NCBI GenBank assembly: GCA_965224085.1
Contig: CBDCYI010000005.1
Span: 544,001 to 608,000, forward strand
DNA: 64,000 bases
Source of the DNA: Candidatus Marinacidobacterales bacterium
GTDB taxonomy: Bacteria; Acidobacteriota; Vicinamibacteria; Marinacidobacterales; SMYC01
Reading direction: 5' to 3'
Shown here: positions 1,299-27,465 of the stretch, piece by piece
Layout of the letters: the number at the start of each line of letters is the position of its first letter
How positions within the stretch are numbered: the first letter of the stretch is position 1
The notes under the pieces: generated by a model
Databases searched by the model: none
What the model saw: the letters and a program-made list of their open reading frames with translations, nothing else
Told to the model about the DNA's origin: nothing
Program-made: the position numbers and the translations under genes

Positions 1299-1334
1299 GC
1301 CATCATCTCCTTCTTATGAATCCAAAACGCTAAA

Positions 1335-2150: not shown

Positions 2151-2193
2151 AAGTCGTCCTTATGAAGATTAAGGTGTCGGAAACGTCTTCTAT

Positions 2194-5013: not shown

Positions 5014-5032
5014 GTTTCACTCCACCTCTAAG

Positions 5033-6175
5033 CTAGATATTGAAGAAAATCTCGGGAAACGCCACGATGTATTTCAAATCCCACATCCATCTCATGTACA
5101 TCTTGATGGGTAGACTCATCATGAGAAGAAACAGTGTGACGCCCACGTAATAGCGAGCCGGGCCCATCTTCTCGTAGTACTTGTGGAGGCTCATCCATCG
5201 CAGAAATCCTGGGAATTTTTCCTTCGGAAGCGCCAGCGCCACAGGAAGAACGCCCATGTAGAAGAGAATCATGAGGATACCGAGCCACTCGCGGTAGATA
5301 GGGTAAATCAAATTCGTGACGAAACCGGAACCCGGCGCTGGGCGTGGCAGTGGCACTTCGAGAAACCTCACCCAGAAAAAATCCGAAATATTGACGTTTA
5401 GAAGCGGCTCGACACGATGCTGGTCCCAATATTCATAGGGCCCAAAGAAGTTCCAGTTCGGCCCGCGCAGAAATGTCCCAGAGATCACGAGGAGCACCCA
5501 GAGCACGAGGAACCCGTAGAGAAAGATGGCGATCTCCGCGCGACGCTCTTTGAAAGTGAAGTAGCCGTTCCCTTTCGGGTTCGTGTCGATATAAGGAATC
5601 GCCATGAGACCTACAAGGATGAGCGTAGGAAAGACGACGCCCGCGAGCCATGGGTCGAAGTAGACGAGCATTTCCTGAAGGCCGAGGAAGTACCAGGGCG
5701 CTTTCGACGGGTTGGGCGAATCTGCGGGGTTTGCGGGCTGCTCGAGAGGCGCCGGCAACAAGATCGACCAGACGACGAGCCCGATGGTGAGAAGAACCAT
5801 GCACAGGAGCTCGACGTAAACAAGGTCCGGCCACACCCAGACCTTGTCCTGTTCCTGCTTCTCCATGGGCTCTTCCCCTGCCGCGATCCGCTTGTCGTTC
5901 TCGACGCCTTGATGCATGGCGAACCAGGTAAGAAACGCCACGAGAAACAGCATGAAGGTGATCGGCACGTTGTCCGGTTTAGCGACGATGAGAAAGAAGT
6001 TCGGATCGAACATGCTCAGGAAATAAACGGTCGTCAAGATGCCGAAGAAGATATAGGCGACCTTCTTCGACCATACCTCGGTGTATTTGAGCGATAGCCC
6101 GAACGCGATCGTGGCCACGGTAAAGAGCACCGTCGGCCCGGAAGACCAATTGATGATGTTTTTGAGGAAATCCAT
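5033..6175 (-). CDS. Cytochrome b C-terminal / subunit IV-like protein (PetD/QcrC-like) with extra TM helices
   Basis: VWPDLVYVE, PLEQPANP...NPSKAPWYF (PEWY-equivalent), LMAIPYID. Confidence 0.85.
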   Translation of the reverse strand: MDFLKNIINWSSGPTVLFTVATIAFGLSLKYTEVWSKKVAYIFFGILTTVYFLSMFDPNFFLIVAKPDNVPITFMLFLVAFLTWFAMHQGVENDKRIAAGEEPMEKQEQDKVWVWPDLVYVELLCMVLLTIGLVVWSILLPAPLEQPANPADSPNPSKAPWYFLGLQEMLVYFDPWLAGVVFPTLILVGLMAIPYIDTNPKGNGYFTFKERRAEIAIFLYGFLVLWVLLVISGTFLRGPNWNFFGPYEYWDQHRVEPLLNVNISDFFWVRFLEVPLPRPAPGSGFVTNLIYPIYREWLGILMILFYMGVLPVALALPKEKFPGFLRWMSLHKYYEKMGPARYYVGVTLFLLMMSLPIKMYMRWMWDLKYIVAFPEIFFNI

Positions 6176-6214
6176 AACGCTCAGCCCTGGGTTTCGAACG
6201 AGAAGCGAAAGCGA

Positions 6215-7012
6215 TTACATGGGACCGGAGATACCGCCATCCTTACGCACCCTCCAGAAGTGCACGGACATCAAAACAGCCGCGACCAGCGGCAACCCGA
6301 CACAGTGAAGCACGTAGAAACGCAGCAGCGTGTTCTCGCCCACAGAGCGTGCGCCGAGCAAGGCGAAACGAGCGTCGTTGCCGGAATTGATGAGATTGAT
6401 ATCCCCTAGTTTCAAGGCCGCGCTGAGCGGCCCCTCCGTTCCTAGCAGCGGTGTCGCTCGAGCCATATTCGAGCCCACGGTGATGGCCCAGATAGCGAGC
6501 TGATCCCAAGGAAGAAGGTAGCCCGTGAACGAGAGCAGGAGAGTGAGCACGAGAAGGATGACGCCCACGCCCCAGTTGAACTCGCGCGGCGGCTTGTAGG
6601 AGCCCGTCATGAAGACGCGGAACATGTGGAGCCACACGGTAATGACCATTGCGTGCGCGCCCCAGCGATGAAGCTCACGCATGAGACCGAGAGGCACGTG
6701 CTCGCGGAGATCGATGATGTCGGCGTAAGCGTACTCGACCGTGGGCCGGTAGTAGAACATTAATAGAAGGCCCGTCAAGGTCAAGACGAGAAACAGGAAA
6801 AAAGTGATGCCGCCCATGCACCAGGTGTAGCGTAGCTTGATGCCGGCTTTGCGTGACTTCACCGGATGAAGATGAAGAAACACGTTGGACATCATCACGA
6901 GCACGCGGTTCCGATTACTCGTCAGGGCCCCGTGGCGGAAGATGGACTTCCACACTTGGGATTCCGTCATCGCGTCCCACGCGCCGCTGAATGCGTTTAG
7001 AACCTTCTGCAC
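6215..7012 (-). CDS. petB: Cytochrome b6-like N-terminal subunit
   Basis: WCMGGITF (heme ci Cys), [44 protein letters not shown]. Confidence 0.92.
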
Positions 7013-7045
7013 CGAAAACTCCTCAATTTCGCTATTCGGAATGAA

Positions 7046-7606
7046 TCAGGAGAGACTCAAAAATGATTCCGGATCGCTCCATTGCCCGGCTTCCTGCTTA
7101 TAGATGCGGCTCTTGTCGATTTCCACTTGGCCATCTTCAGCCATGACGATCCGATGGCGCTCGAGCGGCCTGGGCGCGGGGCCCTCGAAATTGATGCCGG
7201 TCATGTAGAAGCCGCTCCCGTGGCAGGGGCATTTGAATTTGTTCTCTGCTTCGAGCCAGTTCGGCGTGCATCCGAGGTGGGTGCAGATCGTGGAAAGCGC
7301 ATAGATGCCTTCTTCGTTCCGCACGATCCAGACTTGGTAGCGTTCTTTGAAGCGCGTGTCGACGACGCCGATGGCGAAGTCGGCGGGAAAGCCTGCCTTG
7401 AAGTTGGATGGCGGCTCGGTCAGGACGTTCGGAAACATGAAACGGCCCATGGCCGTGAGGCCAGCACCGGCCGCAGCCGCGAAGAACGTCCACCCGAGCG
7501 CAACCCAGTTGAACTCGCGTCGCGTCACGTCCTTTTTCTTCTTCTCTGTTTTCGCGGCGGGAGCCGCTGCTTTCTTTGTCTCGTCAGGCTTTGTCTCGTC
7601 AGCCAT
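7046..7606 (-). CDS. petC: Rieske 2Fe-2S subunit of the bc complex
   Basis: Tat motif TRREF; CTHLGC and CPCHGS. Confidence 0.93.
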   Translation of the reverse strand: MADETKPDETKKAAAPAAKTEKKKKDVTRREFNWVALGWTFFAAAAGAGLTAMGRFMFPNVLTEPPSNFKAGFPADFAIGVVDTRFKERYQVWIVRNEEGIYALSTICTHLGCTPNWLEAENKFKCPCHGSGFYMTGINFEGPAPRPLERHRIVMAEDGQVEIDKSRIYKQEAGQWSDPESFLSLS

Positions 7607-7774
7607 ACGTCCACCTAGATTCGAGGGTCTCTCAGGGACTATTCGACTCGAAATGTGTTAACGGCCACGCGTTGGGAGCTTGGAAGGAATTCCATGCCAA
7701 CAAATGATTGTATTCGCCACCAGCAAAAGGTGTCAAGGCTCGAAAACGTTCGAAAACGCTCACCCAACTCATTG

Positions 7775-7798
7775 AAAAAAGGAGCCGTGTCACGGCTC
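7775..7798 (-). terminator. Intrinsic terminator overlapping the stop of the HEAT-repeat gene
   Basis: Minus strand GAGCCGT-GAC-ACGGCTC followed by C-TTTTTT. Confidence 0.55.
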
Positions 7799-8722
7799 GG
7801 GGACCGGGTGAGCGATCGCGTTCTCGGAGAGAGCCGCCAGGGCGGAAAGAGCCTCCTCGCGAAGAACGAGATTGGCGTGCGCGTCCGCCACTTCCTGAAG
7901 TTTCGCGGTCAACGTCTCGCCACCGACGATCGCCACCGCCTGTATGGCGCTCTGGGTAGCGAGGAGCTTTTGCGACCGGTCCATATCCGTGAGCCCTTCG
8001 AGAAACGGCTCGTCCAGCATCTGCAGAAGTTGCGCCTCTCCGGAGGTGTCGTGAAGCTGCGCGAGCGCAACTGCCGCATTCCAGGACACGTCGCGCTCGC
8101 GATCGGAGAGCGCCACTCGAAGCCGCGGGACCGCTTTATCGTCGCCCAGTGCGCCCAGAGCGTAGACCGCCATCTTCCGCACGCCGGCATCGCTATCCCC
8201 GACCAGCTCGAGGACAGGATCGAGGGCCCGCGCGTCGCCAATCGAGCCGAGTGCCCACACCGAATACAGCCGCGTGCTCGGCTCGTCGTCGCCGAGTGCA
8301 GCGACGAGCGCCGGAACCGCGGACGGATCGGCGAGATGCCCCAGGGACAGAGCAAGATAGTGCCGCACTCTAGGGTCGTCCTTCTCGGCTTCCTCGAACG
8401 CAAGGACCATCTCTCGTACGAGGCCTTCCATCCGGCGCTTCTCGTCGTCCATCGTGATGATCTTGGAGAGCTCGAAAGCAGCCTGCCAGCGCCGGTTCGC
8501 GCTGCCGGCGCGCACCTCGTTCAGATAGTCGACACCCGTTTTCTCATCCGATACCAGCCAGGCAAAGAAGACGAAGACACCCACACATGAAGCGACCACG
8601 AAAGCGGGGACGACGAAGAACTGCAGCGCCGTCCTCCCGAAATCGAGGTCGTCGTCGAGCTCCGGCGGTGCCGGTGAGGACTCGGGAGGGTTTACGGTGG
8701 GCGCTTTCTCGTCTTCCGTCAT
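7790..8722 (-). CDS. Membrane-anchored HEAT-repeat (PBS-lyase-like) protein
   Basis: Repeated D.D..VR..A..ALG.LGD..AVP.L units after one TM helix. Confidence 0.85.
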   Translation of the reverse strand: MTEDEKAPTVNPPESSPAPPELDDDLDFGRTALQFFVVPAFVVASCVGVFVFFAWLVSDEKTGVDYLNEVRAGSANRRWQAAFELSKIITMDDEKRRMEGLVREMVLAFEEAEKDDPRVRHYLALSLGHLADPSAVPALVAALGDDEPSTRLYSVWALGSIGDARALDPVLELVGDSDAGVRKMAVYALGALGDDKAVPRLRVALSDRERDVSWNAAVALAQLHDTSGEAQLLQMLDEPFLEGLTDMDRSQKLLATQSAIQAVAIVGGETLTAKLQEVADAHANLVLREEALSALAALSENAIAHPVPEP

Positions 8723-8776
8723 TATTATTGGGGCGCCATCTTATCCCGACCCGCCAACAGATCAAAACTCTAGATA

Positions 8777-10460
8777 GTACCCGTCCTGGCGGACGTAAGA
8801 GGTTGAGAAAAAGGGAGTAATCGCAAATTTAGGGCTAGTCTTCTGAGGGGTTGTCGCTTAGAATCGAAGTCGTCAAAAACAAGAGTCTAAACGACTTAAC
8901 TCCAAAGGAGACCAGCCCTAAATGCGAAAAACAATCATTCCACAACCAAGCCTATGCGAGCCCTGGCTGGAGGTGGAGCACGCGCGCGAACTCGAAGCGA
9001 TCTCGTCGGTGCTCGATGCCCATCCTAAGCTCAATGAGCTGGTACTGCAAGACCTGAGGTCGGTCACCCCATCGGCAGGGAGCGATGTTGGTCGTGGGGG
9101 AATGAGCGCGGAGCAGGTTCTCCGGGCGTTGTTGGTCAAGCAGCTGAATCAGTTCACCTATCGGGAGCTGGCGTTTCACTTGGCAGACTCTCGAAGCTAT
9201 CGGACGTTTTGCCAGCTCGGCATCATAGAGCCGAGCCCGTCGAAGTCGACCCTAGCAGCAAACATCAAAGCCGTGAAGTTCGAAACGCTGGAGAAAATCA
9301 ACCGAGAGTTGGTGAGTGTTGCCGAGAAGACCGCGATCGAAAAAGGAAGAAAAGTACGAGTGGACTGCACGGTAGTGGAGTCGAATATTCATTCTCCTAC
9401 GGACTCCGAGCTTCTTTATGACTGCGTCCGAGTTCTCACTCGCCTCATGTGCCGAACTCGCGAACTGCTGGGTACAGTAGTGGTCTTCGGCAATCGAACG
9501 CGTCGAGCGAAGAGACGTCGACTGGGAGTTCTAAACGCGAAGGATAAGGAACAAAGGCGTCGCGTCTATCGAGATCTACTGAAGGTGTCGGAAGAAACCT
9601 ATCGCTCCGCTCAACGCGTTGCAGACCAGTTGGACGAGTCCGGCTTGACCGAGCCGGTGAAGCGAGCGAGTGCGGAGAAGATCGCCGCGGATTTTAAGCA
9701 CTTTCTCGTCCTCACCGAAAAAGTCATCAACCAAACTCGGCGTAGAGTGATTGATGAAGAGCGTGTGCCTGCGGAGGAAAAGGTCGTTTCGATCTTCGAA
9801 GAACACACCGACATTATTCGCAAAGACCGGCGCGAGACTCTCTACGGTCACAAGGTGTGTTTGACTGGTGGCTCGTCCTCGATGATTTTGGATTGCGTGA
9901 TCTTGGATGGGAATCCGTCCGATTCAACTCTCGCGGAAACCATGATCGACCGTCAAGTCGAACTCTACGAACGGGCCCCGCGCCAGGTTGCCTACGATGG
10001 CGCGTTTTCTTCAAAGGCAAACTTGGAAGCCATCAAAGGCAAGGGAGTTGAAGATGTTGCCTTTACCAAGGCTCACTTCGCGGTGACCGATATGGTCAAG
10101 AGTTCCTGGGTCTATCAACGCCTACGGCGATTTCGCTGCGGAATCGAAGGCGTCATTTCGTTCTTGAAACGAGTCTTTGGTCTCGACCGATGCACATGGC
10201 GCTCATTGCCTTCTTTCAAATCCTACGTATGGAGTTCCATCATCACCTGCAACCTGTTGGTAATGGCAAGGCACCTATTACGATAATAATGATTACTCTT
10301 ACTGCGTTTATAGCCATGGATTGCTGACGATTCGCCTCTCGTTTCGTCCAAGATTTTCATTCGCTTCCGAGCCTACGAGGTGCCGACTGAAAACGTATAA
10401 TACCCACATCTTCGATAGGCCTCTCGTACACCACAAGTTATGGTGTTTCTGGACAGGAAC
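8777..10460 (+). mobile_element. Insertion sequence (ISNCY/IS5-like DDE), 1684 bp
   Basis: Ends GTACCCGTCC / GGACAGGAAC (imperfect IR); flanking direct repeat TAGATA at 8771-8776 and 10461-10466. Confidence 0.85.
8922..10286 (+). CDS. DDE transposase (DUF772-type N-terminus)
   Basis: RVDCTVVESNIHSPTDSELL, AYDGAF, RFRCGIEGVISFLKRVFGL. Confidence 0.92.
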   Translation: MRKTIIPQPSLCEPWLEVEHARELEAISSVLDAHPKLNELVLQDLRSVTPSAGSDVGRGGMSAEQVLRALLVKQLNQFTYRELAFHLADSRSYRTFCQLGIIEPSPSKSTLAANIKAVKFETLEKINRELVSVAEKTAIEKGRKVRVDCTVVESNIHSPTDSELLYDCVRVLTRLMCRTRELLGTVVVFGNRTRRAKRRRLGVLNAKDKEQRRRVYRDLLKVSEETYRSAQRVADQLDESGLTEPVKRASAEKIAADFKHFLVLTEKVINQTRRRVIDEERVPAEEKVVSIFEEHTDIIRKDRRETLYGHKVCLTGGSSSMILDCVILDGNPSDSTLAETMIDRQVELYERAPRQVAYDGAFSSKANLEAIKGKGVEDVAFTKAHFAVTDMVKSSWVYQRLRRFRCGIEGVISFLKRVFGLDRCTWRSLPSFKSYVWSSIITCNLLVMARHLLR

Positions 10461-10469
10461 TAGATAACC

Positions 10470-12290
10470 TCAAAGACTCGGGCTTGCCTCGACGAAGCCT
10501 TGGCGAAGTCGGGCGATTTCCTGGTCTTTGTACTGCAGCTGATAGAGCTTGTAGTAGATGCCACGCTCGGCAAGAAGCTCCTGATGGGTGCCCACCTCCC
10601 GAACCCGCCCTTTGTGAAGCACAACGATACGATCGGCTCGTTGGATGGTCGAGAGGCGGTGGGCGATCACGATACTCGTTCGGTTCTCGAGCAAGCGCTC
10701 GAGCGCTTCACGGACCAGGATCTCTGTGTGGGTATCGACGTTCGACGTCGCTTCGTCGAGAATCAGGATCTTGGGATCGTGGACGAGGGCGCGCGCGAAA
10801 GAAACGAGTTGTTTCTGCCCCGCGGACATCGAGGCGCCCCGCTCCGCGACTTCCTCGTCGAGACCACGCGGCAGCGTCGCCACCCACTCGTTCAAATTGA
10901 CGACGCGGGCGGCCTCGGCGACGGCTTCATCCGAGATGGACTGGTCCCCGAGGCGAATGTTCGACGCGATGGTCCCCGAGAACAAATGGACGTCCTGAAG
11001 AACCATCCCGAACTGCCGTCGTAGCTTCTTCAGATCCCAGTCGCGCACGTCCACGTCGCCCACAACCACCTGTCCCTTTTGGGCATCATAGAGACGCATG
11101 AGCAGGCTCGTGAGCGTCGACTTCCCAGCGCCAGTATGCCCTACGACCGCGACCGTCTCACCCGGACGGACGGTGAGATCGACGTCTTTCAAGACCCAAT
11201 CCTCACCGTCATAGGCGAATGAAACGTTATCGAAACGGATGTTTCCATCGTCGCGCCCCGCTGCGACGATATTAGATGGCGTGGCAGGGGTTCGAATCTC
11301 GACTTCGGTATCGAGAAGATTGAAGATGCGCTCCGAAGACGCCATCGCGCCTTGCAGTATGTTGAATTTCTCCGAAAGATCGCTAATGGGGCGGAAGAAC
11401 TTCTCCGAGTATTGGATGAACGCGACGAAGCCGCCGAGCGTCAGAGTCCCGAGAAGGAGTTGTCCGCCGCCGTACCAAACGATGAGTCCAATAGCGACGG
11501 CGCTCAAGACTTCCACGACCGGGTAAAAAATCGAGTAGTGAAGGATGGACTCGATATTGGCTTCCGTGTGCTGCCGGTTGAGCTCACTATATTGGCCGAA
11601 CTTGCGCTCTTCCTGACCAAAGAGCTGCACGACCTGCATCCCGACGATGTTCTCCTGGATGAAGGCATTCAGCATGGCGACACGGGTGCGCACTTTGCGG
11701 TAAACCGCCCGAACCCGCCGTTTAAAAATCATCGTCACCACGAAGAGCGCAGGGAGCACCGCGAAAGTCACGAGCGCGAGCTTCCAATCGATGTAGACGA
11801 GGACACCCATAATGCCGAGCAACATGAAGAAATCGCCGAAGATGGTGACGACGCCCGAGGTGAAGAGCTCGTTGAGAGCATCCACATCGGTGGTGACGCG
11901 CGTCACGAGACGCCCCACAGGGTTGCGGTCAAGAAATGACGATTGGAGCTTCTGCAAGTGCGAGAAGATCTCGCGTCGCATATCGGCCAGCACGCGTTGG
12001 CCGGCCAGGTTCATGATGTAGATTTGGAAATATGAGGCAACGAATTGGAGGGCGAGCGCGAGAACGTAGACAGCAGCTATCGTGTTGAGCCCAGACAGGT
12101 TACCGACCGCGATGTAATCGTCGATGGCGATTTTGGTGAGGATGGGGCCGACGAGCTTGAGTGCGGAAGCGACGAGAACCAAGACGAAGGACACCACGAC
12201 CCGAAGCTTGTACGGCCCGAGATAGGCCAAGAGACGGCGCATCAAGCGGCCGTCATATACTTTGCCTAGGGTCTGTTCTTCATTCAGCAT
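10470..12290 (-). CDS. ABC exporter, fused TMD-NBD (MdlB-like)
   Basis: GHTGAGKST, MSAGQKQ, ILDEATS. Confidence 0.93.
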   Translation of the reverse strand: MLNEEQTLGKVYDGRLMRRLLAYLGPYKLRVVVSFVLVLVASALKLVGPILTKIAIDDYIAVGNLSGLNTIAAVYVLALALQFVASYFQIYIMNLAGQRVLADMRREIFSHLQKLQSSFLDRNPVGRLVTRVTTDVDALNELFTSGVVTIFGDFFMLLGIMGVLVYIDWKLALVTFAVLPALFVVTMIFKRRVRAVYRKVRTRVAMLNAFIQENIVGMQVVQLFGQEERKFGQYSELNRQHTEANIESILHYSIFYPVVEVLSAVAIGLIVWYGGGQLLLGTLTLGGFVAFIQYSEKFFRPISDLSEKFNILQGAMASSERIFNLLDTEVEIRTPATPSNIVAAGRDDGNIRFDNVSFAYDGEDWVLKDVDLTVRPGETVAVVGHTGAGKSTLTSLLMRLYDAQKGQVVVGDVDVRDWDLKKLRRQFGMVLQDVHLFSGTIASNIRLGDQSISDEAVAEAARVVNLNEWVATLPRGLDEEVAERGASMSAGQKQLVSFARALVHDPKILILDEATSNVDTHTEILVREALERLLENRTSIVIAHRLSTIQRADRIVVLHKGRVREVGTHQELLAERGIYYKLYQLQYKDQEIARLRQGFVEASPSL

Positions 12291-14053: not shown

Positions 14054-14100
14054 TTTGGCAAAGCGCTGAAGAAACCAGTATAGCGCTTCGCCAGCAATCC

Positions 14101-14130
14101 GCATGCATGCACGCACGCATGCATGCATGC
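14101..14130. repeat. GCAT/GCAC tetranucleotide tract
   Basis: gcatgcatgcacgcacgcatgcatgcatgc, intergenic. Confidence 0.7.
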
Positions 14131-14168
14131 AGCAATCAGGGTTCAGGACCGTGTTTCGGTGTTGTTCT

Positions 14169-15734
14169 CTACTTTGTTAGGGTGAAGCGGAAGCGGACTA
14201 CGTTCGTGGTTTTGGCGGGGACTCGGAAGACCACATGTCTTTGGTCTAGGGTTAGGACTTCGCCGCTTTCTATTCTTAGGGTGCCTGGGATCAGGTTCCG
14301 GGTGGTTTGGAAATTGAAGTGCCAGCGGCCAGGGTCGATGGGTTGAGTCAGGAGGCGGGCTTCTACGATGTTTTCGCCAGGTCGGGCGGTCAGGTGGTGT
14401 TGGTGCGGTGTGGTCCCACTCGTGGTTTCGGCGGTAGAGTCGTTTAGCGATATTTGGGCGCGTTGAGTTTGGTTGCCTTTTGGGAGCTCTAGGTGGCTCG
14501 TGAACGAGACTTCGGTGCGTTTTGTTCTCGACTCTGTTGCGGCGACGCTTTGGCCTTCGACCACGATGAACTGCGTGGTCGTGTCTTGCCTTCCCTCTCC
14601 GTTGGTCACGGTCAGTCTCACGCCGTAGATGTCGGGCTTTGCGAATTGTCGTGAGACAAAGACGCCTTCGGCGCCCGGACGGCCATCACCGAAGTCCCAC
14701 TCATAATTCGTGATCGCTGAGGCGCCACCGTCACGATCGCCAACCGAGCACTCCCCATTGAAGTTGATGGACTCGTTGGCCGCGATCCGTGGGGGGTCTG
14801 GCGTCGGGGTGAAACAGGCGACGGGAGTCGCGCGCACGCGGACGACGCGTGAGGTGTTGTCGGTTCTTTGTCCCTCGCTCACCGTGAGCCGGACCGAGTA
14901 GATCCCTCCCGGCCGAAAGAGATGCTCCACGCTCGAGCCCGTTGCGGTCTGCCCGTCTCCGAAATCCCAGGTGTAGGCCATAACACTCGCCGGCGTGGTG
15001 CACGATGCGTCGAAGAGGATCGTTTCTCCGGACTCGATATCCGGGATCGGGTCGGGCGTGAAACAAGCTCGAATCGCGCCGGGAGGTTCGGGTGTTGCTC
15101 CGCCATCCTGCGGTGACTCTTCTCCGGCGATCACGAGCGCAGCCACACCCGCCCCCGCGCCGGCAGCCGCAAGGACGCCTAGCGTCGTGCCAGACCACGT
15201 GCCACCCGCTCGAATCCCGTCGGAGCTGAAACCGTTCGGGAACTCGCTCTGATCGCTCGCCGTGCGTTCGACGCGAACGTCGTCGGTGACCGCGCTCGGG
15301 GCGGTTCGGGCGCCGGGGCAGCCCCCCATCAACACGTTGACCATGTGTACCGGCGACTGAAATTCGGGCGCGCTCGACTCAATAACATAGAGGACACGGG
15401 CGGCCTCGGGAAACGGCTTGGGAAGAGCGACTTGAAACAAAGCCCCGCTTGGAGGCCGGAACACGACCTCGTACCAACCTGAGTCCGTCTCCGCCTTGAA
15501 TCGAACTTTGAGTCCGCGAATCACCCGCGCCGCTTCCGCACTCGACGTCCGAGCTTCGATCAGCGGAAACGCTTCGGTATCCATGCACGGGGCGGGGCTG
15601 TGCTCGATCGGCTGCGCGAAGCTCGGTGAGCCTGCGGCCAAGAGAGCGACACTGAGGGTCACTAGGGTGATTCTGGGCGAAGCCGCGGTCAAGAGAGCGA
15701 CACCGGTAAGGGGCACTAGGGTGATTCTTGCCAT
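14169..15734 (-). CDS. Exported protein with two PKD domains
   Basis: Signal-like N-terminus MARITLV...; YTWDFGDG and YEWDFGDG, G.Y.VRLTV; overlaps the upstream stop. Confidence 0.8.
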   Translation of the reverse strand: MARITLVPLTGVALLTAASPRITLVTLSVALLAAGSPSFAQPIEHSPAPCMDTEAFPLIEARTSSAEAARVIRGLKVRFKAETDSGWYEVVFRPPSGALFQVALPKPFPEAARVLYVIESSAPEFQSPVHMVNVLMGGCPGARTAPSAVTDDVRVERTASDQSEFPNGFSSDGIRAGGTWSGTTLGVLAAAGAGAGVAALVIAGEESPQDGGATPEPPGAIRACFTPDPIPDIESGETILFDASCTTPASVMAYTWDFGDGQTATGSSVEHLFRPGGIYSVRLTVSEGQRTDNTSRVVRVRATPVACFTPTPDPPRIAANESINFNGECSVGDRDGGASAITNYEWDFGDGRPGAEGVFVSRQFAKPDIYGVRLTVTNGEGRQDTTTQFIVVEGQSVAATESRTKRTEVSFTSHLELPKGNQTQRAQISLNDSTAETTSGTTPHQHHLTARPGENIVEARLLTQPIDPGRWHFNFQTTRNLIPGTLRIESGEVLTLDQRHVVFRVPAKTTNVVRFRFTLTK

Positions 15735-18391
15735 GCGACACGAAACCCGACAACGCTTTCCTTGGCCTCGGGATGCAGAAAATTGCGACCCGCCGCCGAC
15801 AGATAGCGCTCGTCGTTGAAATAGGACCCGCCTTTCAACACACGCGTATGGGTCGTAAGGGGGCCCATGGGATTGACCGGCGTCGTGTTTTGCCGTGTTG
15901 GCGTCGAGCCGTCCTGGCACCACTCCCACACGTTGCCCGCCATATCGTAGAGCCCTTCCGGCGTCGCGCCGTCTTCAAAAGAGCCGACCGGCCTCGTGCC
16001 GCCATCCTGCCTGCGATTGACGTTGAAGTTGGCCGTGGCCGCGGTGGGAGCCCGCTCCCCCCAAGGATAAGGCCGCCCGGACGGGCCGCGGGCCGCGAAC
16101 TCCCACTGGGCCTCGGTGGGTAGATTGCCGCCGAGCCAAGCGGCATAGGCCATCGCTTCGTACCAGCTCACTCGCGTCACCGGATGGTCGTCGGGCGCTT
16201 CCGGATCATATTTCGGATCGAATCGCCGGTACTCGGAATTCGTAACCTCGGTGCGCTGAATGGAGAACCGGGAGACCCGCACCTGCCAGCCACCGTCATC
16301 CGCGGTCATCCCCAAGTCGAAGGCACCGCCCGCGAACGAGACACGCCGAAGCCCGACCGAACTGGGCGGTGCGGCGTAACCCGCCTCTTCGCAGAACCGC
16401 TTGACGAGCATGTTCCGAAGCTCCCGCTGTCGCTGTGTGGACGGCTCCCGTTCCAACGCGTCCAAAGCGACGAGAAGCGGGACGAACTCTCTCGCGGAGG
16501 CAAACCATCGCTCGTCGACACGCGCCAAAACTGCGTTCGAATCCTGGCTTCCCCTCACGAGGATATCCAAAGCTCCCACGACTTCCCCCGGGTCGCGGCT
16601 AGAAAGCCGTATCCGAAGAGCCTCGACCAGAGCATTGTTCGTCTCTTGAACTTGTTTTTCGCTGTCCTCGATCTCTTCTTGACGCTCCTCTGCAAGGCTC
16701 CGTTGCCGATCCGCTAGATTTCTCTGGAGTCGCGCGTCCTCGGCCGCGCTCTCGGCATCCGCCCGCGCGCTCACCGCCCCCTGCCGCTGCAAAACGGCCT
16801 CCTCACGCTGCGCATCGGCGATGCCCTTCAAGCGGGACGCTTCGGCCGCGGCTTGCTCGGCAAGCTCGCGCGTGTTCTCCGCCTCTCGCTGCTGACGTTC
16901 GGCCTCACGCCGCTCGGCTTCCGCGATGCCACGTTGCTCTGAAGCTTCCGACGCAGCTTTCTCGGCAGCCTCTTTCGCCGCCGCGAGCGCATCGGCTTGC
17001 TTCTGCGCGAAATAGGCCCAGGCCATGCCGCCGAGTGCACCCACCGCGAGCACGAAAACAAGGAATAGAATAGCGGCTGTCTTCAGGCTCTTTCGGTGAC
17101 GCTCCTCCACTTCGCGCACCGCCTCGGCTTCTCGCGCGCGACGGCGGCGCTCGTCCCGGCTAGTCGTCACTACTCCGGTGAGAAGGTCGTGGGTGAGCTC
17201 CAGAAGCTGCAAGCGCCCTCGCTCCTCGACACGCACGAGCCGCCGTCGTACCAGCTCTTCGATGTCGTCCTTCGTCACTCCCGGAACGCTCAAAGCTTCG
17301 TCATACACGACAAGATTGCGAAAGCCGCGCCTCGTGAGAAGTTTTTCCTCGACGAAAGTGCGAACCGACTCGCTGAGATCCGCGACGCTACGCTCGTAGA
17401 AACCGTGGAGGACCTGCTCTTGCGAACCCTCGACCATCTCGCCAGTGATCCGGGACTCGCGCCGTTCCTGGCGCTGGCTGTTCAGCTCTTGGCAGACGAC
17501 GCTCAAGAGTGCAGGCTCGACTTCGAGGTCAACGAGCTCCTCGTCTTTCTTCGCAGCGGCGACGAAACGCACGATGCTTTCGGCGACGTCAGGAGCGATG
17601 ATCTCCGGTGCCTGGTTGACCACCTGAAGGGCAGCCACACCGTTCATGCGTCCGAGACGAAAACGGTTATGGGCGATTCTGCCCATGCGCTCCCCGAGAC
17701 CTTCGAGGTCCGGAAGAAAATCCTCGCGGAGCGTCAAAAGAACTTTGTATCGGTGGCGGTCGAAAGCAAAACGGTCTGCTTCGCTCTTCTCCTGATTCGG
17801 GGGCTCCATCTCGAGCCGTGACTTCAGCTGCACCGGCGGCCGCCCTTCGACGAGGTCAGCGAGCTCAATGATGAACGCGTGCGTCGCTTGAGAGCGCGCC
17901 GGGTCGCGCTCTCCGAACGTGAAGACCTCTTCGAACTGGTCAAAGACGAGCAGAGGCCTCAAGACCTGATGCCGTGGGCTCCAAAACTCGACGTCGCTAC
18001 GGTGAAAATATTCCCAGAGCGTTTCTTTCGTGAGCGGCTCGGGTGCTTCGACGCGCGCATGGGCCGTCGCCTGCACGACGGCGTTCTTCACTTGAGCGAT
18101 AAGATTGGGTTTACTAGGCGAATAGTCTAGACGGATATAGACGGGGAACACGTTCTCGCGCCGAAGACGCGGGAAGAGTCCAGCCTGAAGAATCGAGGAC
18201 TTGCCGAGTCCCGAAGGCGAGAAGAGGATGGTTAGACGCTCGCGCTCCACCCGCCGAACGAGCATCTCGGACTCGAACTTGCGCCCGTGAAAATACCTCC
18301 AGTCGTCCTCGCCAAAGGGCAGCAGCCCCGGCCACGGATTTTCGTCGCTGAGCCCGACCCCGGCCGGAAGTGAGGAGGATTCGACGTTCAT
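15716..18391 (-). CDS. nSTAND1 NTPase + TM + coiled coil + FGE-sulfatase (SUMF1-like) domain protein
   Basis: NPWPGL...YFHGR, SPSGLGKSS, LVFDQFEEVF, ELTHDLL; TM AAILFLVFVLAVG; TEVTN, LPTEAQWEFAARG, GLYDMAGNVWEW, GFRV. Confidence 0.88.
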   Translation of the reverse strand: MNVESSSLPAGVGLSDENPWPGLLPFGEDDWRYFHGRKFESEMLVRRVERERLTILFSPSGLGKSSILQAGLFPRLRRENVFPVYIRLDYSPSKPNLIAQVKNAVVQATAHARVEAPEPLTKETLWEYFHRSDVEFWSPRHQVLRPLLVFDQFEEVFTFGERDPARSQATHAFIIELADLVEGRPPVQLKSRLEMEPPNQEKSEADRFAFDRHRYKVLLTLREDFLPDLEGLGERMGRIAHNRFRLGRMNGVAALQVVNQAPEIIAPDVAESIVRFVAAAKKDEELVDLEVEPALLSVVCQELNSQRQERRESRITGEMVEGSQEQVLHGFYERSVADLSESVRTFVEEKLLTRRGFRNLVVYDEALSVPGVTKDDIEELVRRRLVRVEERGRLQLLELTHDLLTGVVTTSRDERRRRAREAEAVREVEERHRKSLKTAAILFLVFVLAVGALGGMAWAYFAQKQADALAAAKEAAEKAASEASEQRGIAEAERREAERQQREAENTRELAEQAAAEASRLKGIADAQREEAVLQRQGAVSARADAESAAEDARLQRNLADRQRSLAEERQEEIEDSEKQVQETNNALVEALRIRLSSRDPGEVVGALDILVRGSQDSNAVLARVDERWFASAREFVPLLVALDALEREPSTQRQRELRNMLVKRFCEEAGYAAPPSSVGLRRVSFAGGAFDLGMTADDGGWQVRVSRFSIQRTEVTNSEYRRFDPKYDPEAPDDHPVTRVSWYEAMAYAAWLGGNLPTEAQWEFAARGPSGRPYPWGERAPTAATANFNVNRRQDGGTRPVGSFEDGATPEGLYDMAGNVWEWCQDGSTPTRQNTTPVNPMGPLTTHTRVLKGGSYFNDERYLSAAGRNFLHPEAKESVVGFRVAWQESP

Positions 18392-19728
18392 GCAAGACTC
18401 GCGCTGCGATAGCTACGCTGAAACTGTACGACCTTCTCCACGAACTCGGAGCTCGGCCCGCCGTGCGGGAGGCTCTCCCACGGGGGCGCGCCGAAGTCGT
18501 TCGGGAGCACGTCTTCTGACGTCCGGACATCATCGACCGCAACCGGAAGAATGAACGGTCCCGAAGGCACTAGTCCTTTAGCCTCCAATATAGCCTCGAC
18601 CCAGTCGGGGCGGAAAAAGCGTCTCCGCGCGGTCGAAGCCCGCCGCGAAAGCACCGGCACGAAGAGCGCACAGCTGGTGACCACGTTTCGGAGCTTTCGC
18701 TCCCACTTGCCGCCCATATCCAAATCGTCATTGCCGAAGATGACATCCACTCCGGCCCGATCGAGAGCGTCGCGAATCGACTCGGCCGCGTCGCGATCGG
18801 CCTCCGCGTAGCTCACGAACACCGCCCCGGATTGCATGCCGGACGAGGCGACCAACGACAAGATGGAAGACGGCGGCTCGGACTCCTCGATCGGCGCGGA
18901 ATCGTGGACACGCCGGGAAAGCTCGTCGATGAAATCCAAAGCGCCCGCAGCGTGGAAGATCTTCGCGCCTCCTCCGAAATGCTGCAGCAAAACAACGTCT
19001 CCTCGCACGGAATTCTGTCCCCTCGTGGGGACCAAGTCGACTTTCGCCTCCAGGCGGCGGCCGCTCTTCGTATGACCCACGAAGAAGTTGATGAGCCAAT
19101 CGTCGAAACGGCTCCCAAGGACCAGAAGGTTGCTTCTCTTGAGCTTGTCCAGCAAGAGATTCGGAGCGTCCTCGCCTTTCGACTGCAAGAGCCGGACGAA
19201 CTCGCCAATATCTTCCCGGGTAACAGCGTAGCTCTGCGGCGTCGCCGAGAGACGGCCGAGTAGATGAAACACCGCGGGCCGGTTCAAGCGGTCGAACTCC
19301 CGAGGAAGATCCTGTTTGTCTGTGGGCGCATGGGTAAAAACGAGCGTTTGCCGCTGCTCGTCGAACCGTTCCTGATTGATCGCCCGCTCGATCAAGAAGT
19401 CAAACGTTGTCGTGACGTAAAGCTTGAAACTCGTGATCCGAGCAAGCTTCAACAGTGGCTCGGGCACCGCAAGCCCGTCGAGCTCCCGCAGCACGACGCG
19501 AAGACCGTGGTAGAGGTCCTGAACGTCGTTTGAGCCAGCAAGATAGCGCCGCGCCACCTCAAAGAGCTCTTCCCTGGCAGGCAAATCCCGCGCTGACACA
19601 CCCAAATACTCGGCAAGCCGCTCCGCAAGAAACGGATAAAGAAGCCTCTGGTCCCCCTCGTTCTCCACGAAAAGAAGATCCTGCCCCACCACCGGGACCA
19701 CCGACTCCTCTTCAACGAGCTGGATCAA
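18388..19728 (-). CDS. SIR2-like + TIR domain protein
   Basis: VVPVVG, YVTTTFD, VFHLLG, LLVLGSRFDDWL (SIR2_2-like); VFVSYA...DRDAA..IRDAL...GVDV...CALFVPVLS (TIR_2); ATGA overlap with the next gene. Confidence 0.85.
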   Translation of the reverse strand: MIQLVEEESVVPVVGQDLLFVENEGDQRLLYPFLAERLAEYLGVSARDLPAREELFEVARRYLAGSNDVQDLYHGLRVVLRELDGLAVPEPLLKLARITSFKLYVTTTFDFLIERAINQERFDEQRQTLVFTHAPTDKQDLPREFDRLNRPAVFHLLGRLSATPQSYAVTREDIGEFVRLLQSKGEDAPNLLLDKLKRSNLLVLGSRFDDWLINFFVGHTKSGRRLEAKVDLVPTRGQNSVRGDVVLLQHFGGGAKIFHAAGALDFIDELSRRVHDSAPIEESEPPSSILSLVASSGMQSGAVFVSYAEADRDAAESIRDALDRAGVDVIFGNDDLDMGGKWERKLRNVVTSCALFVPVLSRRASTARRRFFRPDWVEAILEAKGLVPSGPFILPVAVDDVRTSEDVLPNDFGAPPWESLPHGGPSSEFVEKVVQFQRSYRSASLA

Positions 19729-19867
19729 CTGCTCCCAAAAAAGCTCAGAATGAACGATCGCAAACCTCCTCCACGCTTCTAGTGCTCAATGCTCGCTCTC
19801 TCTTGACCTTGCCCCGAGCTCGCCCGGCGTGCCGTCGGCCCATTCGGGCCGGAGGAGCGAAGCGAGC

Positions 19868-27115: not shown

Positions 27116-27465
27116 GGGGGCGCCCTGGGTTCGACGGAGATAATTGATTTCGAGGTGGCATGCCGAGCTCCCATCCCTCGTTAAACGGTGGGAAAACACA
27201 CAATTGCTGACCAAGAGTTAGCTTTAGCCGCGTAAGCCGGCTACGTTCTCCCGGGTTTCGCCCGCCGTGCTCGGGAAGAACGTCATTCAGGTGGGCTAGC
27301 CGGACATTCGCCCCGCGTGTCCAGCGAAACTTAGGGGATAACTTTCATCAGGTCCTTGCCGGCTCCTAACTGATTGGAAGTGAAGCTTAACGGGAACCGG
27401 ACACGCATGTAGAGGCCTCGGAAGAAGATCTTCGGACGCGGGTTCGATTCCCGCCGCCTCCACCA
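27116..27465 (+). ncRNA. ssrA: tmRNA, tag peptide ADQELALAA
   Basis: GGGGGCG...GGTTCGAC 5' end; GGTTCGATTCCCGCCGCCTCCACCA 3' end; GCT GAC CAA GAG TTA GCT TTA GCC GCG TAA. Confidence 0.97.

Follow-up and report, generated by a model that had tools for sequence, protein, structure and literature searches.

What might a STAND-type ATPase, a SIR2-like/TIR protein and an exported PKD protein accomplish together, when their genes overlap on one strand? The stretch of DNA analysed here (the window) is 64,000 nucleotides long. Its minus strand carries gene A (18388..19758, 456 amino acids; assigned by Pfam and its conserved start), which encodes the SIR2-like plus TIR protein; gene B (15716..18391, 891 amino acids; Pfam, alignments and motifs), which encodes a type-II membrane receptor running from an nSTAND1 NTPase through a transmembrane helix, a stalk and a helical domain to an FGE fold; and gene C (14169..15734, 521 amino acids; Pfam, alignment and model), which encodes an exported protein made up of a signal peptide, an N-domain, a Gly/Ala-rich hydrophobic stretch, two PKD domains and a C-terminal beta-sandwich. 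Direct reading of the sequence places all three genes at the coordinates given by the first-pass annotation, and bears out its description of co-directional, overlapping genes: A and B share 4 nt (GCATGA, the stop TGA lying within the ATG context) and B and C share 19 nt (ATG of C at 15734, TAG of B at 15716-15718). The reading that we favour, with a probability of about 0.5, is that A, B and C form a translationally coupled cassette of a periplasm-surveying, membrane-spanning NLR-like receptor system. The combination of a membrane-spanning ATP switch, an exported partner and a NADase-like protein lacking the usual catalytic residues makes this probably an unusual envelope-watching defence or signalling device. 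The unit, the trans-membrane layout and the PKD partner of the first-pass interpretation have stood up to analysis; its NAD module, as worded, has not, and its claim of novelty goes too far.

The start of gene A is non-canonical, an ATC at 19758-19756 (ATC in 10 of 11 sequences, ATT in the other). A Shine-Dalgarno sequence, AGGAGG, lies 6 nt 5' of it (19765..19770, minus strand; sequence reading), and GGAGG recurs at the same spacing in the window and in 9 of 10 orthologues, with GAGGG in the tenth (L106). Conservation thus supports the start originally picked at 19758, non-canonical codon notwithstanding.

That the three genes constitute a unit, as had been proposed, is upheld by their order: of 13 stretches fetched, 12 preserve it, and the thirteenth is cut by a contig end. 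The stretches that bear the trio come from a single Acidobacteriota family, of which they cover at least 8 genera; between genera only the A, B and C gene families are common, and flanking genes are common within a genus only. A search for the STAND part of B found it in 14 of the 18 other family genomes and in none of 42 genomes from elsewhere. Amino acid identities within a genus and to other genera are 91-94% and 64-71% for B, 85-90% and 54-63% for C, and 85-91% and 45-59% for A; the corresponding values for a housekeeping aminotransferase are 92-95% and 73-81%. Since identity declines in step with that of the aminotransferase, the cassette is read as vertically inherited. Its neighbours in other genera are housekeeping genes (pyruvate kinase, a PGI-like protein, a Cys/Met PLP enzyme, EamA), and no reverse transcriptase was found among the eight neighbouring ORFs scanned at the window locus. 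PADLOC names no system for the cassette, its ThsB and LmuA models reaching only E ~0.02.

Vertical descent, housekeeping neighbours in place of defence islands and the lack of a PADLOC match fit resident signalling as well as they fit immunity. They invite the proposition that envelope state is reported by a complex of B and C in the periplasm, with A as a non-catalytic adaptor, in a resident device for envelope signalling or assembly. The absence of catalytic residues from A, the place of C in a family of exported envelope proteins that is specific to this lineage and the C-terminus of the FGE domain of B, which is highly conserved and not diversified in the orthologue alignment, all speak for this proposition. 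Other facts pull against it. The rate of evolution of A is about double that of the aminotransferase. Two copies look decayed (stops and frame breaks at L111, a frame break in B at L110), although these being metagenome assemblies, errors are possible. The nSTAND1, TIR and SIR2-fold domains have so far been described in conflict systems, to judge from the portion of Kaur, Iyer, Burroughs and Aravind (2021, eLife; PMC8195603) drawn on here. The exchange of ectodomains described below is also what sensors show when the selection on them changes. On balance we hold such a resident function to be unlikely.

Pfam divides protein B into an nSTAND1 match (residues 19-406, E 7.2e-28) and an FGE-sulfatase match (residues 684-887, E 8.9e-45). 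The NTPase module (17174..18337, minus strand; Pfam and motifs), which would be cytoplasmic, has its Walker A motif GLGKS at residue 61 and its Walker B motif LLVFDQFEE at 147. Pfam finds neither a domain nor an adaptor N-terminal to it, in agreement with the original description of a STAND ATPase devoid of a fused effector. A hydropathy scan yields one hydrophobic segment (residues 434-462), which accommodates a single transmembrane helix (about residues 437-462; 17006..17083, minus strand) preceded by RHRKSLK. Beyond the helix lies a charged helical stalk (residues 463-600; 16592..17005, minus strand; delimited by composition and conservation), rich in Ala, Glu, Arg and Gln, with no Pro and only 3 Gly; its 140 residues are read as a putative coiled coil. 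A conserved helical domain (residues 601-683; 16343..16591, minus strand; orthologue alignment), for which no Pfam match was found, links stalk to FGE fold.

The FGE-fold (FGS) domain itself (15731..16342, minus strand; Pfam and structure alignment) would be periplasmic. Alignment with the solved FGEs 2q17 and 6muj puts N859 and L864 at the positions of the catalytic Cys pair, which is likewise replaced in 10 of 10 aligned orthologues; the loss of this pair noted at first reading is confirmed. PorK, of the type IX secretion ring, acts as a protein-binding scaffold and not as an enzyme. Like B, PorK/GldK has a periplasmic non-catalytic FGE fold, and the domain matches family models and solved structures of these proteins (TIGR03525, E 3.5e-22; 9ots and 9mzu, E 4.6e-12), with family scores far under the cut-offs (79 bits vs 350). 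PorK differs from B in being a lipoprotein of a secretion machine and in having no NTPase.

The pairing of A with a membrane-bound STAND protein extends well beyond this family. An A gene lies directly upstream in all 9 loci whose STAND match has at least 38% identity, and in 22 of 24 further loci. Among the best 120 homologues of B, WD40 forms included, 119 have a hydrophobic segment after the NTPase, which substantiates the trans-membrane architecture claimed for B; the segment is also present in 6 of 6 proteins at loci L002, L003, L004, L007 and L008, four of which have WD40 repeats (Pfam). The ectodomains of the A+B module are swapped across phyla, FGE, WD40, PF11901 and short forms all being represented. 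A together with an nSTAND1-transmembrane-ectodomain protein is a widespread, multi-phylum two-gene module with interchangeable ectodomains. No C-like protein was found at the loci of the two-gene relatives. The first-pass annotation had missed the multi-phylum pair.

In protein C the N-terminal beta-sandwich (residues 43-178; 15201..15608, minus strand; taken from the complex model), which carries the loop V134-L-M-G-G-C139-P-G141, found no known family in Pfam or in a further family search; strong matches to it sit at the cassette position. Two PKD domains (PKD_4, E 9.3e-32; residues 222-301 and 305-393; 14556..15071, minus strand; Pfam, alignment and model) each hold an invariant Cys pair (C224/C245 and C307/C329), and a modelled C-terminal beta-sandwich (residues 405-521; 14172..14522, minus strand) recurs in paralogues. 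Signal-peptide-like N-termini in 11 of 11 aligned orthologues, together with three invariant Cys pairs in the same 11, place C outside the cytoplasm. Between N-domain and PKD domains, hydropathy marks out a Gly/Ala-rich hydrophobic stretch (residues 183-205; 15120..15188, minus strand), which is conserved in orthologues, varies from 23 to ~48 residues across C and its paralogues, and is bordered in them by acidic and Pro-rich sequence. It could be a membrane helix, which would place the PKD domains in the cytoplasm; in the model the stretch has pLDDT <30 and no helix.

A partnership between B and C, suggested at the outset with the PKD protein as co-receptor, is made plausible for the FGE ectodomain by complex prediction. 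The FGE domain and the N-domain of C give ipSAE values of 0.72, 0.72 and 0.74, whereas the best of 3 controls stays at 0.00; contact agreement between runs is at least 53%, and the partner's pLDDT is at least 76. Of 80 solved complexes 58 reach the mark that this pair attains, and of 110 mismatched pairs 2 do, a calibration that is rough with own alignments. Of the 17 interface residues contributed by C, 10 are invariant, compared with 27% in the rest of the N-domain; on the FGE side the figure is 7 of 19, compared with 39% elsewhere, that is, no extra conservation. Residues 858-859, 863, 870-873, 876 and 878-880 of B are predicted to lie at the interface. In the prediction the invariant GGCPG loop of C is clamped in the former substrate groove of the FGE domain, which in an active FGE receives the Cys-containing peptide substrate.

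Protein A would be cytoplasmic and at the effector position of the system. As originally described, gene A encodes SIR2-like and TIR domains on a chain of its own: Pfam matches to SIR2_2 (residues 113-233, E 5.2e-11) and TIR_2 (residues 313-410, E 2.8e-13) both exceed the cut-offs. The AF2 model (pLDDT 79) is closest by Foldseek to ThsA (8bto, 7uxt, 6lhx), then to Avs5 SIR2-STAND filaments (9nc9, 9jap) and DSR2 (E 4e-9 to 1e-4). These matches, and a gene standing in the place of an N-terminal effector, commend the notion, which takes the first-pass account at its word, that A is a functional NAD+-consuming effector like those of Thoeris, DSR or Avs5, activated by the STAND protein and killing or arresting the cell by NAD+ depletion. 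The residues tell against it. In the SIR2-like domain (about residues 1-290; 18889..19758, minus strand), T118 takes the place of the Asn and L167 that of the His (probability 97.6, E 3.8e-12 and 199 columns when aligned by hhalign with 20 canonical SIR2_2 domains); in the TIR domain (about residues 310-432; 18463..18831, minus strand), I390 stands at the catalytic Glu position (W386+4) in profile alignments to three solved NADase TIRs, AbTir, PdTIR and SARM1. Tallied over 151 family sequences, the Asn site holds T in 125, S in 12 and N in 5, the His site holds L, F or M in all 151, and the TIR Glu is kept in 12. By eye, the N-terminal Gly loop is G-Q-D-L-L, compared with G-A-G-T-S in a canonical SIR2_2 protein of the same genome. 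A shifted active site is conceivable, D120 (the Asp of a TTxFD motif) being conserved in the family alignment and H165, two residues before the canonical His, in 109 of 151 sequences.

Family-wide replacement of these residues makes ordinary NADase activity doubtful and leaves the "stand-alone NAD-related module" of the initial account unsupported as worded; textbook NAD+ hydrolysis is disfavoured as output, and a working NADase seems improbable to us. With the canonical residues replaced, it is gene position and constancy that point to an effector role, and an output of non-canonical chemistry or of assembly and scaffolding is suggested by the loss of Asn and His from the SIR2-like domain and of Glu from the TIR domain.

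In the favoured mechanism, that of the periplasm-surveying receptor, the nSTAND1 ATPase would lie in the cytoplasm while helix and stalk hold the dead FGE domain in the periplasm, where it would grip the N-domain of C by its invariant Gly-Gly-Cys-Pro-Gly loop. We infer that something entering or damaging the envelope might disturb the FGE-PKD complex by binding, cleavage or displacement; the disturbance would pass through stalk and helix to the ATPase, which would oligomerise and then engage protein A. The direction of signalling, like the trigger and the output, is part of this proposal, and could be reversed, with A sensing in the cytoplasm, B switching and the output falling at the membrane or in the periplasm. 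The non-catalytic look of A, the transmembrane segment in 119 of the best 120 clade members and the Gly/Ala-rich stretch conserved in C and its paralogues would suit inside-out signalling, which we nevertheless regard as very unlikely: STAND proteins sense through their C-terminal domain and give their output from the N-terminal side, as is established for the family and restated in the part of bioRxiv 10.64898/2026.10.19.760177 used here. Its output might take the form of clustering of transmembrane helices, or of release of C with insertion of the Gly/Ala-rich stretch into a membrane; but one helix per protomer is a weak pore candidate, and the two-gene relatives do without a C-like protein.

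How the receptor reading relates to described systems can now be stated. PADLOC's silence agrees with the first-pass view that no named system matches, but related classes have been described, and the cassette is best read, from its domains, as a membrane-spanning variant of the STAND NTPase-FGS conflict systems (PMC8195603, as far as drawn on here), which include the nSTAND1 clade. Common to both are a central nSTAND1-clade NTPase, a C-terminal FGE-sulfatase (FGS) lectin-like domain, there interpreted as sensor, and TIR-type domains, there among the outputs, with effectors sometimes on separate chains. In that account, however, the FGS sensor is intracellular, whereas in B it would be made periplasmic by helix and stalk; an EAD or effector precedes the NTPase, with separate effectors carrying the same EAD, whereas B has nothing N-terminal; and FGS genes are often linked to diversity-generating retroelements, whereas the FGE C-terminus of B is conserved. 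The portion of PMC8195603 considered describes neither a PKD partner nor a SIR2-like/TIR protein, both of which are present here. nSTAND1+FGE and NACHT+CLec proteins of Thiohalocapsa PB-PSB1 are targets of diversity-generating retroelements, which hypermutate them, and carry EAD8 (PMC10907252, again in part). The former share with B an nSTAND1 module and a C-terminal FGE/C-type-lectin fold, interpreted as antigen sensor; a periplasmic location is predicted there for some CLec domains of STAND systems, and the part of PMC10907252 at hand describes no SIR2-like/TIR partner, dedicated exported partner or Cys-Pro loop contact.

A resembles Thoeris (ThsA SIR2-SLOG, ThsB TIR) in joining a SIR2 fold to a Rossmann-like second domain, and the cassette resembles Avs5/AVAST5 (SIR2-STAND) in coupling a SIR2 protein to a STAND switch. 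The cassette differs in that the SIR2 Asn/His and TIR Glu residues are not conserved, in that SIR2 and TIR share one chain, and in that the STAND stands apart as a membrane-spanning protein from a different clade. A likeness in topology is shown by the receptor-like ParA proteins, type-II single-pass proteins in which a constant cytoplasmic NTPase is joined by a transmembrane helix to a variable extracellular sensor, and which are interpreted as immune receptors; they use ParA and not STAND, nSTAND1 appearing only as a fusion partner in the part of that report consulted (bioRxiv 10.64898/2026.10.19.760177).

The three genes lie in the order A, B, C on the minus strand: gene A (18388-19758, 456 amino acids), which encodes the SIR2-like and TIR protein; gene B (15716-18391, 891 amino acids), which encodes the receptor; and gene C (14169-15734, 521 amino acids), which encodes an exported protein. 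The A/B junction reads GCATGA, with the ATG of B overlapping the TGA of A, and gene C begins with an ATG at 15734, 19 nt ahead of the TAG that terminates B. Pfam assigns SIR2_2 (residues 113-233, E 5.2e-11) and TIR_2 (313-410, E 2.8e-13) to A, nSTAND1 (19-406, E 7.2e-28) and FGE-sulfatase (684-887, E 8.9e-45) to the single chain of B, and two PKD domains to C. The hydropathy profile of B has one hydrophobic segment only, at 434-462, between the NTPase and the FGE-sulfatase lectin-like domain (FGS), with the Arg/Lys-rich sequence RHRKSLK on its N-side. Ala, Glu, Arg and Gln are abundant in the stretch that follows (463-600), which contains 3 Gly and no Pro and is read from this composition as a helical stalk or coiled coil. 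The Walker A (GLGKS at 61) and Walker B (LLVFDQFEE at 147) motifs of B are invariant in 10 of 10 orthologues; by these intact motifs B is a STAND protein of the active-switch type.

The FGE domain of B is a different matter. Alignment to the solved FGEs 2q17 and 6muj places N859 and L864 at the two catalytic cysteines, and the same replacement is found in all 10 orthologues and in the listed homologues; the Cys pair of the active FGE/SUMF1 motif GGS[YF]xCxxxxC is not present in B. The possibility that B is a true FGE enzyme was rejected on these grounds. Public records nonetheless name the B orthologues (P0274-P0343) 'formylglycine-generating enzyme required for sulfatase activity' or 'SUMF1/EgtB/PvdO family nonheme iron enzyme'. 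Since the Cys pair is missing, these names constitute, judged by sequence, a systematic misannotation of STAND receptors. The coordinates, junction reads, Pfam assignments, hydropathy and Cys replacement thus bear out in every particular what the first-pass annotation had described, a three-gene operon at 14169-19758 with overlapping genes, this domain make-up and a Cys-less FGE.

The start of gene A is unusual. The first canonical start codon in its frame is a TTG at 19728, and the peptide encoded 5' of this TTG is conserved in 10 of 10 orthologues examined; upstream, the frame runs no further than an in-frame TGA at 19788-19786. The frame opens with ATC in the window and in nine of the ten orthologous loci (L100-L109), and with ATT in the remaining one (window 19756-19770, minus strand). 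This codon stands six bases after a Shine-Dalgarno-like purine run, which is GGAGG in all except L106 (GAGGG). The distant A relatives that are paired with a WD40-propeller ectodomain start with ATG. AUC and AUU initiate translation poorly, and the conserved ATC/ATT probably serves as a weak start by which the amount of protein A is kept low. Given the two gene overlaps, A, B and C are probably translated as one coupled unit. Between 13800 and 20200 a scan found no promoter-like site; its 6 terminator-like sites compare with an expectation of 6.4.

Genes A and B travel together far beyond this lineage. Among the 80 loci of a first scan of one-genome-per-species contigs, all nine with a STAND match of at least 38% identity (L001-L009, from Acidobacteriota and several Proteobacteria) have an A homologue directly upstream. 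A second scan, seeded with a distant nSTAND1-TM-FGE protein, yielded 24 further STAND loci, by their record titles from Verrucomicrobiota, Gemmatimonadota, Acidobacteriota, Cyanobacteriota, Desulfobacterota and Bacteroidota; A lies directly upstream on the same strand in 22 of these, and the two exceptions are one locus without upstream sequence and one that is fragmented. One hydrophobic segment follows immediately upon the NTPase in 119 of the 120 best B homologues (the exception is a 527-residue fragment), and it does so independently of the type of C-terminus: FGE, WD40, PF11901 or a short domain of ~170 residues. A charged helical stretch follows the membrane segment in all 42 B homologues displayed. 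The segment is also present in 6 of 6 STAND proteins checked at L002, L003, L004, L007 and L008, and, at the chosen threshold, in 13 of the 17 ORFs of judgeable length at the 24 further loci. The STAND proteins of L002, L003, L007 and L008 end in C-terminal WD40 propellers and have no FGE. No C homologue was found at any of the 80 loci of the first scan (E 1e-5). The upstream position of A in 9/9 and 22/24 loci and the membrane segment in 119/120 homologues argue that A, together with an nSTAND1-TM-stalk protein of variable ectodomain, is a conserved two-gene module to which the family of the window's organism has, on the sequences compared, added C. The clade is large: of 8,000 proteins scored for B, at least 2,461 match at E <= 1e-20, and A comprises 2,518 clusters (50% identity) at E <= 1e-30. 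A contig scan for distant nSTAND1-TM-FGE proteins (36-55% identity) yielded non-FGE members and FGE-only genes.

Some variants of this module deserve separate mention. At L003, from a Holophagales MAG, two tandem A-like genes lie between two nSTAND1-TM-WD40 genes (54-10914), and the second STAND protein carries a C-terminal GmrSD_N (DUF262) domain beyond its propellers. Two further ectodomains occur on the nSTAND1-TM-stalk chassis among proteins P0344, P0347, P0348 and P0364 and the 626-697-residue forms P0345-P0385: PF11901 (DUF3421) and a short conserved domain, which has the motif LLIRQAALSGD.

The AlphaFold2 model of A (pLDDT 79) finds its nearest Foldseek match in ThsA, followed by the Avs5 SIR2-STAND filaments and DSR2, which makes the assignment of a SIR2 fold, as modeled, sound. 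The relationship is remote in sequence: single-sequence and SIR2-only profile searches of the SIR2 part found nothing among PDB sequences, an earlier hhalign and hmmsearch comparison with one canonical SIR2_2 domain aligned just the TTxFD motif, and the link was found only by Foldseek and by hhalign against canonical SIR2_2 domains. In the latter comparison, with 20 canonical SIR2_2 domains of related genomes, the SIR2-like profile of A aligns over 199 columns with a probability of 97.6 (E 3.8e-12). This alignment puts T118 of A at the Asn of TTN[FYW]D and L167 at the His of KLHG (K[LM]HG). In the TIR part, profiles against AbTir, PdTIR and SARM1 (7uwg, 3h16, 6o0u), anchored on the (D/E)-W pair, put I390 at the catalytic Glu, four residues past W386. 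These replacements are family-wide. At the SIR2 Asn position, 116 close homologues have Thr (114) or Ser (2), and 151 rows (the window and the best 150 of the 2,518 A clusters) have Thr in 125, Ser in 12 and Asn in 5; at the His position, the close homologues have Leu, Met or Phe only, as do 151 of the 151 rows, with no His; Glu occupies the TIR position in 8 of 116 and 12 of 151, respectively. Protein A has neither the Asn and His of the defence-type SIR2 NADases (ThsA, DSR2, Avs5) nor the Glu of the catalytic TIR NADases (AbTir, SARM1, ThsB-type), and by residue identity it is not a canonical NADase. The earlier proposal of a stand-alone NAD-related module is, as worded, not supported, and neither is the simple equation of SIR2-TIR with NAD+ depletion. 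Other residues of A are conserved (D120, D150, D183, E279, R283, the E/D before W386, and H165, which lies two residues before the canonical His position), and A may have a shifted active site. The window's own genome has, elsewhere, a canonical SIR2_2 gene (L114:997-1947, on contig C5 near 1,963,000) with GAGTS, TVNYD and KMHG motifs; the C-terminal portion of this gene appears to be truncated or frameshifted.

The model of C (pLDDT 76) has five parts: a signal-peptide region, an N-terminal beta-sandwich (N-domain, 43-178), a Gly/Ala-rich stretch (183-205), two PKD domains and a C-terminal beta-sandwich. The N-domain belongs to no known family in Pfam, and the ESM Atlas gave unnamed Acidobacteriota clusters below 0.9; Foldseek of the whole model returned generic Ig-like/PKD domain strings only. 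All 11 C orthologues begin with signal peptides of short hydrophobic core and share three invariant Cys pairs (C50/C139, C224/C245 and C307/C329). The hydrophobic Gly/Ala-rich stretch, which in paralogues is up to ~48 residues long, has a pLDDT below 30 and no helix in the model; the sequence after it is acidic and Pro-rich, an argument against a cytoplasmic location of its C-side, and C is read as extracytoplasmic throughout.

The first-pass annotation had cast the PKD protein as a partner of the receptor, and modeling of the complex agrees. When B(580-891) and C(43-521) are modeled, each with its own alignment, the complex is predicted with ipSAE of 0.72, 0.72 and 0.74 (the best of three controls scores 0.00), at least 53% contact agreement between runs and partner pLDDT of at least 76. 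In calibration, 58 of 80 solved complexes attained the mark, and so did 2 of 110 mismatched pairs; these counts are only rough for models made with own alignments. The model supports binding of the B FGE domain to the N-domain of C and does not show it. The confidently predicted contacts on the FGE side (858-859, 863, 870-873, 876 and 878-880) fall in the segment that bears the Cys pair in active FGE, N859 standing at the first Cys position; those on the C side are 49-50 and 133-141, the latter being an invariant V-L-M-G-G-C-P-G loop. Ten of the 17 C-side interface residues are invariant, as against 27% in the remainder of the N-domain; for FGE, the core of the interface is invariant, but the interface taken as a whole is not enriched (7/19 invariant vs 39%). 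It is in this groove that active FGE binds a Cys-x-Pro-x-Arg peptide, and the FGE-peptide structures 2aij and 2aik are among the FGE hits of B. The loop of the window's C reads C-P-G-A-R, with an Arg that is not conserved, so that it should be called substrate-like, no more. Distant paralogues of the N-domain (26-38% identity) are common in related genomes; the GGCPG loop is missing from them, and neither FGE nor STAND genes adjoin them. Pairing of FGE with this type of domain is therefore not general. A lineage-specific family of exported proteins (L115-L120, in genomes G013, G017, G001, G011 and G009) also has a signal peptide and a C-like N-domain, with a PPGF..GI motif, followed by a hydrophobic Gly/Ala-rich stretch (25-48 residues) and a linker rich in Pro, Ser and Thr; its members often end in the beta-sandwich that also closes C. 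Their Gly/Ala stretch is a candidate membrane hairpin, in-plane anchor or insertion element.

The STAND part of B is found in 14 of 18 other genomes of the same family. The 42 genomes compared from elsewhere in its order or class (a count that includes one unpublished genome, G027) lack it, and FGE domains are their only matches. Conservation of the neighbourhood, which the first-pass annotation had named as a check, holds for the trio itself: A, B and C keep their order and strand in 12 of 13 stretches around B matches, and the thirteenth ends inside B at a contig end. ORF clustering of nine loci of other genera and the window finds A, B, C and their antisense shadows as the only common families. 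These results led to the rejection of chance adjacency of the three genes. Close homologues bear source labels of Vicinamibacteria or Acidobacteria. The copies at L111, which has stop codons as well as frame breaks, and at L110, whose B gene has a frame break, look damaged, though assembly error is possible.

The window's cassette is flanked downstream by two ABC half-transporters and upstream by a TPR-like protein, an aminotransferase and an SLT transglycosylase. A scan of eight ORFs around it gave ABC transporters, a transposase, two TPR proteins, one ORF without a match, the aminotransferase and the SLT protein. The flanking genes are syntenic only in the four genomes of the same genus, and on that ground the two ABC transporters and the TPR protein upstream were rejected as parts of the system. 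The transposase, of IS5 type (DUF772 + DDE_Tnp_1; 8922-10286, plus strand), is found next to the two ABC transporter genes, ~4 kb from the cassette on its downstream side. Of ten neighbouring genes scanned in other genera, four have no Pfam match, and the others include those for pyruvate kinase, a PGI-like protein, a Cys/Met PLP enzyme, an EamA transporter and an FHA protein; such surroundings do not constitute defence islands. Identity to the window decays in parallel for the neighbouring aminotransferase (92-95% within the genus, 73-81% in other genera), B (91-94% and 64-71%), C (85-90% and 54-63%) and A (85-91% and 45-59%), a pattern that suggests vertical descent of the cassette within this family; A is its fastest-evolving member. 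Vertical inheritance, housekeeping genes as neighbours and a protein A without catalytic residues would also suit a cassette that serves envelope signalling of a non-immune kind, an alternative that we regard as unlikely, though deserving of weight.

What is already described provides a place for the cassette. PMC8195603 documents STAND NTPase-FGS combinations across bacteria and archaea, names the nSTAND1 clade, lists TIR among the outputs and treats FGS as an intracellular, lectin-like sensor of invaders that is often diversified by retroelements. In its main text the word 'periplasm' is absent, and 'transmembrane' is used six times, never about STAND-FGS proteins; the main text of PMC7159879 does not mention SIR2. 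PMC10907252 has nSTAND1+FGE proteins as targets of retroelements and some STAND C-type-lectin domains as predicted periplasmic; a 2026 preprint includes FGE-sulfatase-like sensors among STAND sensor types; and bioRxiv 10.64898/2026.10.19.760177 gives the same type-II receptor layout for ParA NTPases. On comparison with PMC8195603, PMC10907252 and the preprints, the cassette is classed with the STAND NTPase-FGS systems, departing from those described in four respects. It shares with them (Kaur et al. 2021) the fusion of an NTPase (NACHT, MNS or nSTAND1) to a C-terminal FGS. Its first difference is its membrane-spanning layout: the FGS of B lies beyond the predicted TM segment, whereas theirs is an intracellular sensor. 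The second is that it lacks an N-terminal adaptor: their N-terminal adaptor domain (EAD) or effector, with EAD-matched separate effectors, has no counterpart here within the reach of Pfam, which finds no further domain on A or B, and the NTPase of B starts at residue 19. The third is its constant partner A, with degenerate SIR2 and TIR sites, and the fourth its dedicated exported partner C, predicted to be held by the dead FGE groove. Their frequent link to diversity-generating retroelements is not seen in the neighbourhood either: no reverse transcriptase is among the eight ORFs scanned there, and the C-terminus of the FGE domain is conserved.

Thoeris, in contrast, consists of a separate ThsB (TIR) and ThsA (SIR2-SLOG or TM-Macro) and has no STAND protein, whereas the cassette has SIR2 and TIR on one chain and a STAND gene adjacent; the PADLOC match to ThsB has an E of 0.019. 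As had been anticipated, PADLOC-DB 2.0 yields no named system, its best matches being TIR-only fragments (SAVED_TIR, 7.9e-6; PDC-S66, 4.7e-4), with none for C, and an NCBIfam scan gives no family-level match for the cassette proteins. A literature search of main texts found no mention of a SIR2-TIR fusion and no relevant paper on a transmembrane STAND protein, though supplementary tables may list the architecture.

To our knowledge, the STAND/NLR-like immune receptors of bacteria that have been studied to date recognise phage proteins in the cell interior. The B clade, in its predicted topology, has a single layout of another kind: a cytoplasmic ATPase, a TM helix, a stalk and an exchangeable periplasmic domain, with the SIR2-like/TIR gene adjoining. 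On the best-supported reading, which follows the usual STAND order of effector gene, NTPase and C-terminal sensor, the periplasmic FGE-C complex would be the sensing end, the B ATPase the switch and A the output; signalling in the reverse direction, from inside out, appears improbable. The logic may be of the guard or bait type, with C as the thing watched, which fits the dedicated FGE-C contact. A bolder reading, to which we give a probability of roughly 0.3, is that a large, multi-phylum class of NLR-like receptors spans the inner membrane and surveys the periplasm, not the cytoplasm; that here it guards a dedicated bait, whose Cys-Pro loop is held by the pseudo-enzyme FGE as a mock substrate; that loss or distortion of this grip fires the ATPase; and that A, lacking canonical catalytic residues, signals by assembly or by an undescribed chemistry. 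Phage tails, ejected proteins, bacteriocins and contact-dependent weapons reach the envelope first, and, if the cassette is immune in function, NLR-type switches can watch the envelope. The predicted contact between the dead FGE groove and the invariant loop of a dedicated partner is mutable and thus offers an unusually concrete handle. Protein A poses a biochemical question of its own: the role of SIR2 and TIR folds that lack NADase-defining residues in a family still under selection.

Two other features of the window may be recorded. At 14100-14135, at the very start of the downstream ABC transporter gene, a run of GCAT/GCGT tetranucleotides (gcatgcatgcatgcgtgcgtgcatgcatgc) forms a possible slippage-prone tract, and a tmRNA gene at 27116-27465 (plus strand) specifies the tag peptide ADQELALAA.
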